From IMG/VR virus record IMGVR_UViG_2526164595_000015, positions 1 to 53,703 of that record: a DNA stretch of 53,703 nucleotides; one strand, written 5' to 3'. Below the pieces are notes generated by a model, which worked only from the letters and a program-made list of their open reading frames with translations, was not told the DNA's origin and searched no databases. The stretch comes from a virus. Taxonomy: Duplodnaviria > Heunggongvirae > Uroviricota > Caudoviricetes. The stretch's first letter is position 1. Every line of letters starts with the position of its first letter. Position numbers and translations under genes: made by a program. Positions 1-46,767 of the stretch are shown piece after piece.

Positions 1-1284
1 TTACAGACTTCTGGAAGGTTGCACAGCTCTTACAACACGCGGTTGATCTTCCGCAGCGTCTTCCAGCGCACTTAAATCACGGTCTTTCACTTCTGGCATT
101 TTCAGCGCAGAGATTAAACCAATCACTGAATATGCCATGATCATAATGGCGATCGGATACCAGGATTCCGTCATGGTGCAGAAAATACCCGCCAGGATAG
201 GACCAAAACCGGAAGCGATAAGACCACCAATTTCTTTAGAAATGGCCATCCGGGTAAAGCGGTTTTTACAGCCGAACATTTCTGCCATGGTAATGTTTTC
301 CAGAGCAAATAATCCCAGCACCGCACAGTTATGAATCACAATCAGTGCAACCATAATGGTGCTCGGGGCATAGCTTTTATCTACAATGATAGAAAGCATT
401 GGCCATGCCAGCACAATCGCGGAGGTATTCATAATAATATACGGGATCCGGCGACCAATTTTATCGGATAACCAACCAAGGAACGGAATGGTCATAAAGC
501 CGAGAATCGAACTAATCATCAATGCATCTGTTGGAATTGCTTTGTTAAACAATAACGTCTGCACTAAATAGCCTGCAAGGAAAGTCTGAATTAACCCGGA
601 GTTACCCGCCTGACCAAAACGCAGCCCTGTTGCCAGCCAGAAGGATTTGCTCTGGAACATGCTACCAGCAGGTGCAGGTTTTGCTGTGGGTTGGTTGCTG
701 TCATTAACCTTCTCAAAGACCGGGCTTTCTTTCAGATTCATACGTAACCAGATAGCAAAGACCATCACGACAACGCTCGCCAGGAACGGTATACGCCATC
801 CCCACGCCAGCAGTTCCTCTTTACTGAGAATGAAGAACATAAAGGCCCAGATTGCCGTTGCGCTCAAGGTTCCGCAGTTAGTTCCCATAGCTACAAATGA
901 GGAGATAATTCCGCGCTTACCTTTTGGTGCATATTCCGCCAGCATCGTACCGGCACCGGAAATTTCCGCACCTGCACCCAACCCCTGAATAATACGCAGC
1001 GTCACCAGCAAGATGGGGGCAAAAACACCAATCTGTGCATAGGTCGGTAACACACCAATTAAGGTGGTACAGATCCCCATCATGGTGATGGTAATAAAGA
1101 GCACTTTTTTACGCCCTATTCTGTCGCCCATTTTGCCGAAAATAAATGCTCCGACAATACGCGCCACATAACCTGCACCGTAGGTTCCCATTGCCAAAAT
1201 TAACGCCATTGCCGTTGATGATTCAGGAAAAAATATTTCATGAAACACTAACGCTGCGCCGAGCGAATATAACTGGAAATCCAT
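1..1284 (-). CDS. ydfJ: MFS-family metabolite:H+ symporter (host gene flanking the prophage)
   Basis: 427-aa ORF with multiple hydrophobic helices and MFS-like motifs (GKMGDRIGRKK, RIPF); ATG at 1284. Symbol from memory of the K-12 Qin flank, not verified. Confidence 0.8.
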   Translation of the reverse strand: MDFQLYSLGAALVFHEIFFPESSTAMALILAMGTYGAGYVARIVGAFIFGKMGDRIGRKKVLFITITMMGICTTLIGVLPTYAQIGVFAPILLVTLRIIQGLGAGAEISGAGTMLAEYAPKGKRGIISSFVAMGTNCGTLSATAIWAFMFFILSKEELLAWGWRIPFLASVVVMVFAIWLRMNLKESPVFEKVNDSNQPTAKPAPAGSMFQSKSFWLATGLRFGQAGNSGLIQTFLAGYLVQTLLFNKAIPTDALMISSILGFMTIPFLGWLSDKIGRRIPYIIMNTSAIVLAWPMLSIIVDKSYAPSTIMVALIVIHNCAVLGLFALENITMAEMFGCKNRFTRMAISKEIGGLIASGFGPILAGIFCTMTESWYPIAIMIMAYSVIGLISALKMPEVKDRDLSALEDAAEDQPRVVRAVQPSRSL

Positions 1285-3016: not shown

Positions 3017-3598
3017 TTACCCTATAGGTGCTACTGGCCATTCAATATCCGGTGCAGTTGTTGTATTAACACGGTTCAGCAACACCCGATACTTCTTCCA
3101 TGCTTCCAGCAACGAGTTTTCTTCCTCCGTTGCGATCTCCAGATCTACAGCATCCTGAAGTGGCGCTATATGCTCACTGGCTACCTGCATCAGGCTGTTT
3201 TTTGTTTCTTCCGCCTCCCGGATCCGGAACAGTTTTTCTGCTTCCGTATCCTTCACCCAGGCTGTGCCGTTCCACTTCTGAAACTCCCCTTCCGGGGATA
3301 ACCAGGTAACATTTTCCGGTAACGGACCGAGTTCAGAAATAAATAACGCGTCCCCTGACGCTACGTCATAAACCGTTTTACCCCGATGGTCTTCAACGAG
3401 ATGCCACGATGCCTCATCACTGTTGAAAACAGCCACAAAGCCAGCCGGAATATCTGGCGGTGCAATATAGGTACTGTTTGCTGGCAGACCTGTATGAGGC
3501 GGAATATATGCGTCACCTTCACCAATAAATTCATTAGTTCCGGTCAGCAGATTATAAATTTTTATGGTCCGAGGTTGTTCACTCATTCTGAATGCCAT
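3017..3598 (-). CDS. tfa: tail fibre assembly protein
   Basis: 193 aa; C-terminus [13 protein letters not shown]...PDIEWP typical of lambda/Rac/Qin Tfa; start overlaps stf stop (TAATG). Confidence 0.9.
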
Positions 3599-39866: not shown

Positions 39867-40295
39867 TCAGGGTTTAAAATCCAGCACCCCATTTTGAAAT
39901 ACTTTATATACTTCCGGCGAAGGGGGGGCAGGTATATCAGCATTCTTTATCGCATTCATCGCTTCACGACATAAATCGAGGTCTCCACTTTCTCTTTTAA
40001 CCTCCAGTAGAAGGCCATTCGGGGCCATATGCATTCTCAGTGTACACTCTTTTCCTGAATACTTACTCGCATCCCCGAACTGTTTTTCGATGGCGCTCTT
40101 GATTTGATGGGCATACAGACGGATATCCTCACTAACATCAGAAGTACGTTCAGATGAACTCACATACTGTGTCTCTATTGCTTTATCGGAGTAATATGAT
40201 GTACGGTCATGATAATTTGTCGATACAGCATCAGTGCACCCGATAATAATCCCACTAATAATCAACGTAAGAATTGATGCGCTACGAAAACCCAT
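39867..40295 (-). CDS. lipoprotein with TolA C-terminal (domain III)-like domain
   Basis: 142 aa; lipobox IIGC; C-terminus YAHQIKSAIEKQFGDASKYSGKECTLRMHMAPNGLLLEV…IPAPPSPEVYKVFQNGVLDFKP closely parallels recalled E. coli TolA-III. Confidence 0.75.
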   Translation of the reverse strand: MGFRSASILTLIISGIIIGCTDAVSTNYHDRTSYYSDKAIETQYVSSSERTSDVSEDIRLYAHQIKSAIEKQFGDASKYSGKECTLRMHMAPNGLLLEVKRESGDLDLCREAMNAIKNADIPAPPSPEVYKVFQNGVLDFKP

Positions 40296-40828
40296 TTTTC
40301 CTCACATATGTCATATAGTAAAGGATTATATATACCGTTGTTTTGGAGGCTCAAACAGCGAATCAGATCAAATAAAACGCACATTTGTTAACATTTACAC
40401 AAAGTCTGCGTGGGATATTCTGAAAGAATATCCATAATGTGGAGAGAATCTATTGAAGTGCATGGTGCCGGGTGCCTCCCGGTGAATTCAGTACCAGCAC
40501 CTGAATCCGCGATTATCCCATATACCTACTCGCTGATTGCCCCTCCGCACAGGGGGATTCACCATGCCAGTTTCTTTTAACAAACTCCCCGCAAACCAGA
40601 GAACAGTCAACCGCCTGAATTGTGAAGTATTTAAAAATCTCTCCCGCTAACTGATACCCGGCTAACAGTCTGGCGTTTTCTTTTTCAGCAACGGGAAAGC
40701 AACAACCACCACACCCGCCACCAGCACACCGTCAGCCAGCACTGACATTATCCGGCTGCTGCAATGCCATTCACAAAAACAGTAAGCAATCACTTTTTAC
40801 CGTAACAGGTGATAATCCAGATATGTAT

Positions 40829-41173
40829 CTACCCCAGATGAGTAATCCGAAGTTCATCCATACCACAAGTCCTGGCTATTCTGTTGTACTCCTGAACAAG
40901 AGCAAATAATTCTGAATTAGCAACCATGAACTCATCGCAAACCCTCTGTATAGCATCACTATTCAGAATAATAACGTCTCTTCCCGAAAGACGATCAGGA
41001 GTACAGAACAAAACTGTCAAACGGCTGAAGGCCTTTGCTCGTGCTGCATTGACTATATCAATACGCTGCCTAAGGATGAAACACCCCGACGCCTCATCAA
41101 TATTCACTCTACCCACACCATATGAATGATAAATATTTAATGCTGAAAAACCATTAGACCGTATAACAAACAC
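40829..41173 (-). CDS. hypothetical protein
   Basis: 114-aa ORF between the tRNA cluster and the lipoprotein genes; no family recognised. Confidence 0.4.
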   Translation of the reverse strand: MFVIRSNGFSALNIYHSYGVGRVNIDEASGCFILRQRIDIVNAARAKAFSRLTVLFCTPDRLSGRDVIILNSDAIQRVCDEFMVANSELFALVQEYNRIARTCGMDELRITHLG

Positions 41174-41291
41174 TCAATCAATACTTAACAGAACTTTTAT
41201 TTTTGACAAACATATAATATTTTCAACAATATCCTGAGCCAGGTATATTCCAGTATAAGGCTCTGCCGGAAGGAATCTGGAAGAATGAATA

Positions 41292-41368
41292 TGGCGCGCT
41301 GTACTGGATTCGAATCAGTGACCGATTGCTTAGAAGGCAATTGCTCTGTCCGGCTGAGCTAACAACGC
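41292..41368 (-). tRNA. tRNA-Arg (anticodon UCU)
   Basis: 77-nt cloverleaf on minus strand: GCGTTGT acceptor, anticodon loop CTTCTAA, T-arm GGTTCGAATCC-like, discriminator G, CCA. Confidence 0.85.
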
Positions 41369-41381
41369 TGAATACCGATAA

Positions 41382-41461
41382 TGGACCGCCATCGGGGACC
41401 CGCCCCCGCACCAACAACCCTGTTATCGTGTCGTCTGCTCTTCCTGATAAGCTAATGGCGG
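41382..41461 (-). tRNA. degenerate tRNA-like element (pseudo-tRNA)
   Basis: 7-bp acceptor stem (CCGCCAT/ATGGCGG) + CCA and a T-arm-like stem, but no pairable anticodon stem and non-canonical T-loop. Confidence 0.3.
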
Positions 41462-41468
41462 TTTGTGA

Positions 41469-41544
41469 TGGTGGCCCTTGCTGGATTTGAACCAGCGACC
41501 TGGCGATTATGAGTCGCTCGCTCTCACCACTGAGCTAAAGGGCC
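41469..41544 (-). tRNA. tRNA-Ile2 / Met-like (anticodon CAU)
   Basis: 76-nt cloverleaf: GGCCCTTTAGCTCAGTGG… anticodon loop CTCATAA, T-loop GGTTCAAATCC, CCA; closely resembles E. coli ileX/ileY from memory. Confidence 0.85.
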
Positions 41545-41583
41545 GGGAGCAGAATAATAACGGTCCGTAATTAATTCCGCAAT

Positions 41584-41606
41584 AAAAAACCCGCTCGGCG
41601 GCGGGT
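41584..41606 (-). terminator. tR'-like terminator downstream of the late promoter
   Basis: cccgc-cgccga-gcggg followed by TTTTTTATT on the minus strand. Confidence 0.6.
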
Positions 41607-41649
41607 TGTAGAAACTCTTCTAACGTCAGGCATAAAAAGCCCATCGTTA

Positions 41650-41685
41650 TGACGAATTTACCACAAATTCCGGAAAAATCAACCT
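41650..41685 (-). promoter_or_regulatory. candidate late promoter pR' (Q utilisation region)
   Basis: TTGATT-16 nt-TAAATT on minus strand immediately downstream of the Q stop. Confidence 0.45.
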
Positions 41686-41687
41686 TG

Positions 41688-42509
41688 TTACCTAGTTACC
41701 TTTTTTAACTGCCGCTCAGCCCATGCTTCTTCAATATCAAACCGGGTCACCAGCGCATCATAGAATTTCTTAACTGTTTTTTCCCATGACGCGCGTGTTA
41801 TCTGGTTTGTCACCTCGCATATAGCATTAAATGCCTCCGTTGATGGTAGTCTTTCATAGCCACGACCACCACAACGCTGGCAGTCTCTGATAACAGGCAT
41901 ACCACGTTTTACCGACTCTTCACGGTGAATGGCGACACCACGCCCACGGCAATCCTTACAGGCGGTGGAAACCTCACCCTTTCCGCCACACTCCGGACAG
42001 GCAACTTTTACCACCTCCCTGACTTTTTTCCATTCTTCCCAGTAAGACGGATACACACCTTTCGTACACTTTGCCCATACCGGCGGCTTACCATCCGGAT
42101 ACTGGACCTTGTTTGTAAAAACTACGCTTTCAATAAATTTTTCCCCATAGCAACAAGGGCACTGCTTTTTACTCGCTGCGCTGCGGGCATAATCCTCAAA
42201 AGCGTACGAAGCCATAATGCGCATCACTAACGGTTTTATTTCTGCCGGAAGTTTTCTCAACGCCGCCACACGATCGCACCGACTGAGTGCATAATCTGCC
42301 AGTAATTCTGTTGCCCGCGCCCTGTCATTCATACTGATGCCCATTTTCCCCAGGAACGCAGAAAACCCCATCTCAGCCCGATTCTGTGTCATGCCCTGCG
42401 CGGCCATCACATCAGTGATACTCAGCGCATCTTTTGACGTTGAGGCCGATGCATCGGTCAGGCAAGGGGATTTTGGGGAGTAGTATTTCGGTAAATCTTC
42501 CAGTTTCAT
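41688..42509 (-). CDS. late-gene antitermination protein Q (QuuQ-like, Zn-finger type)
   Basis: 273 aa with several CxxC pairs; position upstream of pR'/tR' and tRNAs; Qin quuQ-like by synteny. Confidence 0.75.
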   Translation of the reverse strand: MKLEDLPKYYSPKSPCLTDASASTSKDALSITDVMAAQGMTQNRAEMGFSAFLGKMGISMNDRARATELLADYALSRCDRVAALRKLPAEIKPLVMRIMASYAFEDYARSAASKKQCPCCYGEKFIESVVFTNKVQYPDGKPPVWAKCTKGVYPSYWEEWKKVREVVKVACPECGGKGEVSTACKDCRGRGVAIHREESVKRGMPVIRDCQRCGGRGYERLPSTEAFNAICEVTNQITRASWEKTVKKFYDALVTRFDIEEAWAERQLKKVTR

Positions 42510-44755: not shown

Positions 44756-44911
44756 TTACTCCTCAGGTTCGTAAGCTGTGAAGACAGCGACCTCCGTCTG
44801 GCCGGTTCGGATTCGTACCTCGCAGAGGTCTTTCCTCGTTACCAGTGCCGTCACTATGACGGTTAAACAGATGACGATCAGGGCGATTAACATCGCCTTT
44901 TGCTGCTTCAT
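44756..44911 (-). CDS. hokD: Hok-family type I toxin
   Basis: 51 aa MKQQKAMLIALIVICLTVIVTALVTRKDLCEVRIRTGQTEVAVFTAYEPEE matches recalled HokD/RelF; leader region 44912..45120 contains a 9-bp-stem hairpin. Confidence 0.85.
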   Translation of the reverse strand: MKQQKAMLIALIVICLTVIVTALVTRKDLCEVRIRTGQTEVAVFTAYEPEE

Positions 44912-45460
44912 AGCCTGCTTCTCCTTGCCTTTCGGCACGTAAGAGGCTAACCTACATGTGTCTAGCATGAAATTGGCCTCAGATTAATGTTAAGCGTCTC
45001 GCAGGACGCGTAATGTTAACTGGGGCTTTTCTCTATCTGCCGTTGGTGTTCATGCCCGAGGCAGATAGCCTCAAGCACCCGCAGCCATTCTACTTAACTA
45101 CCGTTACCTCGCCAATGTGAAATCAGTCAGAAAGGCGATCCATAAGAACAATAGCAAGACAATAAATCGCCATTACAGCCGTAATAGCCAGCGCACATTT
45201 GAGAACCAGCACCACAACCTCCTGTATTGGACGTACACCAGTCCTGATGAATATGAGGCTGTCTCGTCAGTGATTCAATACAACTATTGGGTATAGTTTC
45301 TCTGATTTTTTCTGTGGAAATGGGGCTCAACCACTAGTCATTTAATACGCAAAGTCCGATACAAGCTAACCTTCTAGTCCGCTTTGAGCGAAAAGCGGAC
45401 GTTGGAAGTTTAAAACTCGCGAACTACTCAGCGTCCATTGATGCGTATTGTGTAACGTGA

Positions 45461-46105
45461 TTAACCACAGATGATATTGAAACGTTCTCCGGAAATCTTG
45501 ACCATAATGTCAGACAGTTTGCTGACGGCATGGGCTTCAGATGATCCCAGAGCGTCAGGCTGAACAGCTATTACCGAAGCTCCACTTGCCAGCCCTGCTT
45601 TTATACCCGCAGATGCATCCTCAAATACCACGCATTCACCAGGCTCAAGGCCCAAAGCCAAAGCTGCTTTGATGTAACCCTCGGGACTTGGTTTTCCCGT
45701 CATTACATCTTCTGCACACACCATTACTATGGGTAAGGGGAGATTAGCCGCTTTCATCCTGTTTTCGGCAAGCATTCTGCCTGCAGAAGTGACAAGTGCC
45801 CAGCTATCCGGTGGCAGTTTTGATAAGAGTGCAGCGGCCCCTTTTACTTCAGTAACGCCTTCTGTCATGTTGATTTCAACCTCTTCGAGTGAGGCCGCGA
45901 TTTTATTGGTTTTCTCACCTGCACCAATAAAATGCGTCAGTGTATCAATCGTTTGCCGCCCGTGTGCGTAAGCAATCACAGCCTGAGTATCAAGACCGTA
46001 TTCTGCACAAAAATCTCTCCAGACGCTTTCCACTACGGCTGTTGAATCAACCAGCGTACCGTCCATATCGAATAAAAAACCCTTAGCGTTGAATATCATT
46101 GCCAT
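45461..46105 (-). CDS. HAD-superfamily sugar-phosphatase-like hydrolase
   Basis: 214 aa; HAD motif I FLFDMDGTLVDS, later motifs (TSAG, GKPSPEGY, FEDASAGI); resembles E. coli HxpA/YfbT-type phosphatases from memory. Confidence 0.8.
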   Translation of the reverse strand: MAMIFNAKGFLFDMDGTLVDSTAVVESVWRDFCAEYGLDTQAVIAYAHGRQTIDTLTHFIGAGEKTNKIAASLEEVEINMTEGVTEVKGAAALLSKLPPDSWALVTSAGRMLAENRMKAANLPLPIVMVCAEDVMTGKPSPEGYIKAALALGLEPGECVVFEDASAGIKAGLASGASVIAVQPDALGSSEAHAVSKLSDIMVKISGERFNIICG

Positions 46106-46128
46106 TCCTTAATGGTTGCAGAAGAAAG

Positions 46129-46767
46129 TTAATCAAACCATGTTTTTTCATCACCTTTCGCTACTCTCAGGCTGACAGCAATCTGCTCAGGCACAATTCT
46201 TGAAAGCGACAATTCAGGCAGGTCGTTGACATCAAAAAAATCAGCATCGAGTGACTCATGGCTGATTGACAGGCTGCCACCTACTTCTTCACAGAGAAAA
46301 ATCAGCTTGTAAACATGCCAGGGTAAAGGCGGATGGCCGTGAAGATTACGATCCCAAACTCCCAATAGTTTAGTCACTCTGACTTTTAATCCGGTTTCTT
46401 CTTCGACTTCTCGACGCACAGCTTCAGAAGGTGTATCTCCAACATCTGCCCATCCGCCAGGAAGACTCCATAATCCATCTGCAGCCTCTTTCACCATCAG
46501 AATACGATTATTACGCAGGATAAACGCACGCACATCTGTTTTGGGCGTCGCGTAACCCGTTTCCGATACATGAAACAAATCATTGCGGCTAATATCAAAC
46601 TGCGAACTCAGCAGTCCAGCGGCAATTTCACGCAAGGCTTCATAGCGTTCCTTGTCAAAGACGTCTTTTGAATAGGTCAGGCCTGACTGCGCGAGGGCCT
46701 TTAGTCTCTGGGCAACAAAAATAAGCTTTTCTTGGGTCAACACTTCAGACATGTTTTTCATCTTCAT
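46129..46767 (-). CDS. NUDIX hydrolase with N-terminal accessory domain
   Basis: 212 aa; Nudix box GGWADVGDTPSEAVRREVEEETGL. Confidence 0.8.
   Translation of the reverse strand: MKMKNMSEVLTQEKLIFVAQRLKALAQSGLTYSKDVFDKERYEALREIAAGLLSSQFDISRNDLFHVSETGYATPKTDVRAFILRNNRILMVKEAADGLWSLPGGWADVGDTPSEAVRREVEEETGLKVRVTKLLGVWDRNLHGHPPLPWHVYKLIFLCEEVGGSLSISHESLDADFFDVNDLPELSLSRIVPEQIAVSLRVAKGDEKTWFD

Follow-up and report, generated by a model that had tools for sequence, protein, structure and literature searches.

An ileZ–argN–argO tRNA cassette with a scrambled middle gene in a Qin-site lambdoid prophage of Escherichia coli

Two tRNA genes and the element between them

The DNA described here, referred to throughout as 'the window', is a stretch of 53,703 nucleotides (positions 1 to 53,703 of virus record IMGVR_UViG_2526164595_000015). 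It matches the genome of Escherichia coli O111:H21 strain 15A at 99.976% identity (BLAST), with four small indels, and the region of interest lies in a lambdoid prophage at the Qin site. Reading along the minus strand, the order is the late antiterminator gene Q, a pR'-like promoter, an intrinsic terminator, a tRNA cassette, a small ORF, a DUF3927 gene, the small RNA gene STnc100, and two genes with TolA C-terminal domains. Beyond these, on the same strand, come an S21-type holin gene, a YdfR-like gene, and the genes for lysozyme and Rz.

The cassette consists of two tRNA genes and, within the ~100 nt that separate them, an element of 80 nt. The first gene, ileZ (41469..41544, minus strand), specifies a tRNA with anticodon CAU, and the last, argO (41292..41368, minus strand), a tRNA-Arg with anticodon UCU, for AGA. 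Both are found by ARAGORN, which labels them tRNA-'Met'(cat) at 41469-41544 and tRNA-Arg(tct) at 41292-41368, and both are found by the Rfam tRNA model RF00005. Their scores (72.5 bits, E = 5e-14, for ileZ; 62.1 bits, E = 4e-11, for argO) are far above chance, and exceed the gathering score of 29 bits that defines membership of that family. We placed no weight on minimum-free-energy folding of single sequences, which misses the cloverleaf even for true tRNAs. Three other Rfam matches in this region were set aside: 'Plastid-ycf2', antisense to ileZ (36 bits, compared with a gathering score of 65.7), and a sub-threshold YrlA match (16 bits) are chance or trivial, and a Trp leader match, also below threshold, is merely the terminator.

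Judged by its body, the CAU tRNA is of the Ile2 type, and it is predicted to read AUA after modification of its anticodon to lysidine. It is identical at 68 of 76 positions to the host tRNA-Ile(CAU) encoded at the ileX locus, adjoining mug/rpoD. Host and phage molecules share A73 and CCA, the same anticodon loop (CUCAUAA), and the pairs C4:G69 and C5:G68. These last two are the acceptor pairs by which TilS separates tRNA-Ile2 from tRNA-Met, and ileZ keeps both. The eight substitutions include a compensated change at 6:67, and the anticodon stem is topped by A27-C43, where the host has G27-U43. PGAP names the gene tRNA-Ile in each matching genome among those listed. The Arg-UCU and Ile2/CAU identities proposed in the initial annotation, which was made by reading the letters alone, are borne out by the ARAGORN anticodons, by this ileX-like body, and by the PGAP name.

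Arginyl-tRNA synthetase identifies its substrates by A20, C35, U36 and a purine at position 73. In argO all of these are present: the D-loop, AGCCGGACA, contains A20, the anticodon is UCU, and residue 73 is G. The initial annotation held that both tRNAs fold well. Both are indeed recognized as tRNAs, but in argO canonical position 53 (window position 41315) is occupied by A, not G, facing C61; the pair that would complete the T-arm is broken, and cmscan flags 53:61 as non-canonical. The cloverleaf energy falls accordingly, from -22.0 kcal/mol for the consensus to -18.2 kcal/mol for the G53A form, a loss of 3.8. Since G53:C61 is nearly universal among tRNAs, the argO copy in the window is probably impaired by this destabilizing change, which is private to one strain: in our sample of 138 cassettes the G53A allele occurs in two, the window and its twin genome, and of 5426 complete E. 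coli genomes only one matches it exactly over its full length.

The 80-nt element between the two genes (41382..41461, minus strand) is recognized by neither predictor. Even with filters relaxed and E values up to 10 allowed, Rfam returns no tRNA match for it, and it matches no Rfam family; ARAGORN likewise makes no call. Alignment identifies it as a homologue of argN, the tRNA gene called as tRNA-Arg(tcg) by ARAGORN in an Stx2a phage, and on this basis we regard it as a dead copy of tRNA-Arg(UCG), hereafter pseudo-argN. The acceptor (7 bp), D (4 bp) and T (5 bp) stems are retained, as is an encoded CCA, and the sequence is conserved relative to argN over its first ~20 nt and last ~25 nt. Between these ends, an unrelated stretch has displaced the anticodon arm and variable loop along with the 3' half of the D arm. 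Where a tRNA has an anticodon stem and a 7-nt loop, this stretch forms a hairpin with a 7-bp stem and a 3-nt loop, and the molecule as a whole folds into a four-way junction with a z-score of -1.8. The T-loop is also altered, to 6 nt (GCGGGU), the canonical TTCGAGT having become GCGGGT. It is the replacement of the anticodon arm by a non-tRNA hairpin, together with the degradation of the T-loop, that makes the element a pseudogene. Alignment and fold thus agree with the earlier reading, of a degenerate third element with acceptor and T arm and no anticodon stem.

Among the cassettes sampled (see below) are 41 scrambled copies of this kind. Of these, 38 also have a degraded T-loop, and their poly-G runs vary from 5 to 12 G. 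When base-pair changes were counted in the 11 distinct scrambled haplotypes, no covariation was found: one pair had changed on both sides, a number reached by 39 of 500 shuffles. Stems are instead broken without compensation, in the acceptor, in the T stem and in the new hairpin (the latter in 4 of the 11), and individual haplotypes carry U8G, an acceptor C:A or T-stem mismatches. The absence of covariation and the uncompensated breaks are what would be expected of a pseudogene. When we looked for a donor of the scrambled interior, 25-46 nt long, in the window and across 50,697 phage records, the sequence turned up in this slot alone.

Late control region, cargo and state of the prophage

Upstream of the cassette are the customary elements of lambdoid late control, as the initial annotation had supposed, all on the minus strand. 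Q (41688..42509) encodes a 273-aa antiterminator that matches Pfam family PF03589 (Antiterm; E = 2.6e-55) and is named 'antitermination protein' by PGAP in the 99.98%-identical genome. The pR'-like promoter (41643..41682) comprises a -35 hexamer, TTGATT (41682..41677), and a -10 hexamer, TAAATT (41660..41655), and is followed by a -10-like pause element, AACGAT (41648..41643), and then GGG. Its score in a generic promoter scan is below threshold, and so we base the assignment on reading of the sequence and comparison with λ, the pR' of which has the same layout, TAAATT-N6-AACGATGGG. The terminator, a tR'-like structure at 41581..41607 (41607..41588 by a narrower delimitation), was found by a terminator scan as AACCCGCCGCCGAGCGGGTT + TTTTATTGCG and consists of a 7-bp GC-rich stem followed by a T-tract. 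By sequence, then, the region has the succession that characterizes a lambdoid late region—Q, a promoter with a proximal pause element, and a terminator—and read-through of the terminator is predicted to depend on Q. The interval between pR' and tR' (41583-41648) would yield a constitutive RNA of ~66 nt analogous to λ 6S RNA and StxS. An isrK-like Rfam match in this interval is weak and sub-threshold (18 bits), and we judge it chance or trivial.

Abutting the T-tract of the terminator is a second promoter-like element, TTGCGG (41582..41577) and TATTAT (41559..41554) separated by 17 nt, which ends 9 nt before the 5' end of the first tRNA (41554..41582 overall, minus strand). It does not appear in the output of the generic scan because its -35 hexamer is weak, matching at three of six positions. 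Its conservation is complete: a motif of the form TTGNNN-16..18-TANNNT, 5-10 nt ahead of the tRNA 5' end, is present in every one of the 136 cassettes whose upstream sequence is long enough, and each of the 28 distinct leaders keeps it, even those of a leader family that has otherwise diverged. By dRNA-seq of an Stx2a phage, Sy et al. found a tRNA promoter in an equivalent position, the correspondence here being one of position rather than of individual bases (PMC7547250). The cassette very probably has a promoter of its own, then, and need not depend on Q. The conservation of this element also implies that the tRNAs are probably made in lysogens, and not solely after antitermination by Q. Alternatively, the AU-rich leader may be conserved as a site of processing.

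The cargo that follows the cassette does not include a stx gene, in keeping with the earlier statement that no toxin genes follow. What follows is a small ORF of 114 aa (40829..41173, minus strand) and, ahead of the lysis genes, a cargo stretch (39321..40793, minus strand) made up of the DUF3927 gene (40662..40793), STnc100 (40406..40596; Rfam RF02076, 114 bits) and the two TolA-C-terminal-domain genes (39867..40295 and 39321..39716); the protein-coding assignments come from a Pfam search of the cargo (families PF13064 and PF06519). The description of this slot as holding an unknown 114-aa protein and TolA-like genes was therefore accurate. The small ORF has no Pfam match and is annotated neither by PGAP nor in phage mEp460. 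Its homologues are 52-57% identical, with a core conserved from 'NIDE' onward and zero frameshifts, and it likely encodes a real protein of ~90 aa that would start at an internal GTG. As a side observation, STnc100 is part of the late cargo, with the DUF3927 gene on one side of it and the TolA-like genes on the other; a 2026 preprint links this RNA with the prophage Pas sRNAs.

The prophage in the window is defective, because the gene for the large subunit of terminase is interrupted by an insertion of ~9.7 kb that bears an integrase gene (window ~24673-34403, minus strand). Among its genes are those for a tyrosine integrase (33001-34239), an Icd-like protein, a RepA-family helicase (28999-30399) and SSB (28128-28550), and it also encodes a fusion of ClpP protease and major capsid protein. 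It looks like a phage satellite of the capsid-forming, PICI-like kind, lodged in a prophage gene. Elsewhere in the window, a pair of genes for a NUDIX hydrolase and a HAD hydrolase (45461-46767, minus strand) occupies the early, nin-like region beside hokD/sok (44756-45080) and rem, and looks like metabolic-type cargo in an unusual location. Two RNA genes found at gathering threshold, DicF (52069-52120, plus strand) and IS009 (3057-3255, minus strand), fit a Qin-type prophage at the ydfJ locus.

Distribution, variation and probable role

The cassette is widespread. The region matches 289 of the 50,697 phage records by megablast, and the cassette itself (301 nt) matches 3061 of the 5426 complete E. 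coli genomes, in up to 13 places each and 7,598 places altogether; the genome that matches the window has three further such places. The scrambled middle element is present in 1813 of the 5426, the exact 80-nt allele in 912, and when a single genome of each species was scanned, the E. coli representative alone was positive for it. PGAP places no feature on the scrambled form, although variants with a normal T-loop are now and then entered as 'tRNA-OTHER'. A remnant carried, unannotated, by roughly one in three complete E. coli genomes should be given a pseudogene label.

To gauge variation we extracted 138 cassettes, for the most part from IMG/VR contigs; ARAGORN finds three tRNAs in 83 of these and just two in 45. 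Diversity per site is 0.002-0.06 within the tRNAs, compared with 0.22-0.38 in the flanks. ileZ is identical in 128 of the 138. argO varies more, and one of its changes, in the T stem, is compensated (CACTGG..CCAGT versus CAGTGG..CCACT). Variation is greatest in the middle gene, which occurs as an intact UCG gene, with defects of T-loop or stem, with a 17-nt deletion, as a Lys-UUU-like tRNA, and in scrambled form (the 41 copies referred to above). Particular contigs illustrate the range: a Lys-UUU-like tRNA that shares the acceptor scaffold (L130, ~1835-2100, and L141), a remnant from which the anticodon arm has been deleted (L129, L140 and L143), and a second, different scrambled form (L081, 237-314). 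It seems that the anticodon arm of the middle slot has been replaced or lost repeatedly. The contrast between a labile argN and an almost invariant ileZ suggests that decoding of AUA is the function under selection.

The surroundings vary too. Upstream are found the Q type of the window, the Q type of 933W, or a DNA methylase gene. Downstream, stx is present in ~14 of the 138, and DUF3927/orf114, with or without the TolA-like genes, in ~30; the rest have other downstream genes, or flanks too short for classification. With flanking modules so diverse and stx in the minority, the cassette is to be seen as a general lambdoid module, and not as a mark of Stx phages; the arrangement is far commoner outside these phages than within.

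Codon usage was compared with that of a 50-kb host region, using the PGAP genes of the matching genome. AGA occurs 1.3 times per 1000 codons in host genes, 3.9 in late genes (OR 3.0, p = 2e-4) and 9.1 in early genes; for ATA the corresponding values are 4.3, 6.2 and 12.2. The late-gene enrichment anticipated from the tRNA identities is thus evident for AGA, but for ATA it is not significant (OR 1.45, p = 0.056). Moreover, the excess of these codons over the host is greater in early genes (3-7 fold) than in late genes (1.4-3 fold), and AGG and CGG, for which the cassette in the window supplies no tRNA, are equally enriched. For these reasons we consider enrichment of rare codons to be a general property of this horizontally acquired DNA, one that would fit a role in tRNA supply without pointing specifically to late genes. 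The genes of the ~9.7-kb insertion have the most AGA and ATA in the window (11.7 and 14.2 per 1000).

Taking all of this together, we are confident that the region is a mobile lambdoid ileZ–(pseudo)argN–argO module of ~310 bp (41584..41277), positioned at the head of the late operon immediately after Q, pR' and tR'. Its own probable σ70 promoter, TTGCGG-17-TATTAT, would transcribe it constitutively in lysogens, and Q-antiterminated read-through from pR' would also transcribe it after induction. RNase P and 3' exonucleases would then free the tRNAs, TilS would convert C34 of ileZ to lysidine, and the products would raise the capacity of the cell to decode AUA and AGA. Pseudo-argN would probably be excised as an 80-nt tRNA-like RNA, unchargeable and non-decoding, and be degraded. 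In the window this system is decaying, as the private argO G53A and the defective prophage attest, and for these two reasons any benefit of the cassette to this strain may be nil.

Might the cassette serve chiefly as a recombination joint, a block of 300 bp, nearly identical in many lambdoid prophages, at which homologous recombination would exchange the Q or methylase module on one side and the cargo (stx, TolA-like genes and others) on the other, with decoding a secondary matter? We think this possible, though doubtful as the main explanation, and it is compatible with the one we prefer. Homology to Stx phages has sharp edges, beginning exactly at the T-tract of tR' and stopping 15 nt past argO (query 137-444); diversity is far higher in the flanks than inside the tRNAs; and the same cassette occurs with three different modules upstream and, downstream, with cargo of at least three types. 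But a pure joint would have no need of an ileZ identical in 128 of 138 cassettes, nor of compensated stem changes in argO; the promoter motif is conserved as well, and the edges of mosaic segments are to be expected at conserved genes in any case.

Two other proposals, both of which we consider very improbable, concern the RNAs themselves. According to one, the middle slot is subject to recurrent replacement of the anticodon arm on a constant tRNA scaffold, and the scrambled allele, far from being a neutral pseudogene, is kept as a processed, non-decoding tRNA-like RNA: a helper in processing or stability of the tricistronic transcript, a decoy, or a small regulatory RNA. Its perfect acceptor, D and T stems, its CCA and four-way junction, and its abundance in E. 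coli genomes speak for this, as does its diversity of 0.015, lower than the 0.035-0.059 of the short spacers in the sample. This low diversity is nonetheless what recent spread and linkage to the selected tRNAs on either side, ~100 nt apart, would produce, in a sample biased by a first scan that demanded intact acceptor ends; and the lack of covariation, the uncompensated breaks in hairpin and stems, the slippage of the poly-G run, the modest fold z-score, and the want of an Rfam family all tell against it. According to the other, the phage tRNAs are replacements that escape host anticodon nucleases or tRNA depletion during infection, rather than matches to codon usage. Such a role is established for some other phages, and the varied anticodon arms of the middle slot (UCG, Lys-UUU-like, scrambled) on a constant scaffold would suit it. 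Yet ileZ and host tRNA-Ile2 have one and the same anticodon loop, with no sign of the changes that evasion would call for; we know of no nuclease for these tRNA species in such a context, and nothing within the window bears on the idea. Supply of tRNAs by a mobile lambdoid module remains the explanation that we favor.

Relation to known phage cassettes

The initial annotation likened the region to the ileZ-argN-argO arrangement of Stx phages, and alignment substantiates the likeness: the window has three tandem elements in the same order, homologous over their full lengths to that trio. Cassettes of this kind are long known, already described and very common in lambdoid and Stx prophages, so that the finding is correct but ordinary, and beyond correct annotation its significance is small.

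The Stx2 phages (933W and Sakai Sp5 type; Stx2a_WGPS8, AP012540) have the same gene order and the same TTGnnn-17-TATTAT leader, and there too the cassette separates the late regulatory region from the first late cargo. Many of them match the window at ~88% (over 308 nt), with ileZ identical across its 76 nt and argO differing at two positions. In these phages argN is intact (UCG), whereas in the window it is scrambled; stx2AB lies downstream, where the window has the small ORF, DUF3927, STnc100 and TolA-like genes; and Q is the 144-aa type of 933W, in place of a 273-aa PF03589 protein with tR' directly upstream of the cassette. Three tRNAs are called in the Stx2a cassette, and depositors of these genomes annotate ileZ, argN and argO immediately ahead of stx2AB.

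Phage phiP27 (an Stx2e phage; AJ298298) is closer, at 92% over 306 nt, and like the window has no functional argN; the scrambled interior is shared, and identical over 42 nt. Unlike the window, phiP27 retains the canonical T-loop, TTCGAGT, and its cassette is flanked by a DNA methylase gene upstream and stx2e downstream. Its depositors annotate ileZ and argO only. (What we say of 933W and phiP27 draws on GenBank annotations.) Closest of all is mEp460_ev081 (LR597641), 99% identical over 521 nt that include Q, pR', tR' and the cassette, and with the same downstream cargo. Its argO has the consensus G53, in contrast to the window, and the record leaves the tRNAs wholly unannotated. Finally, the lambdoid phages SfI, Sf6, ST64T and P21 carry tRNA-Asn/Thr genes in the same slot after Q, different in species and unrelated in sequence to those of the window, and for tRNA genes in this position the proposed rationale is a supplement for rare codons (PMC3636060).
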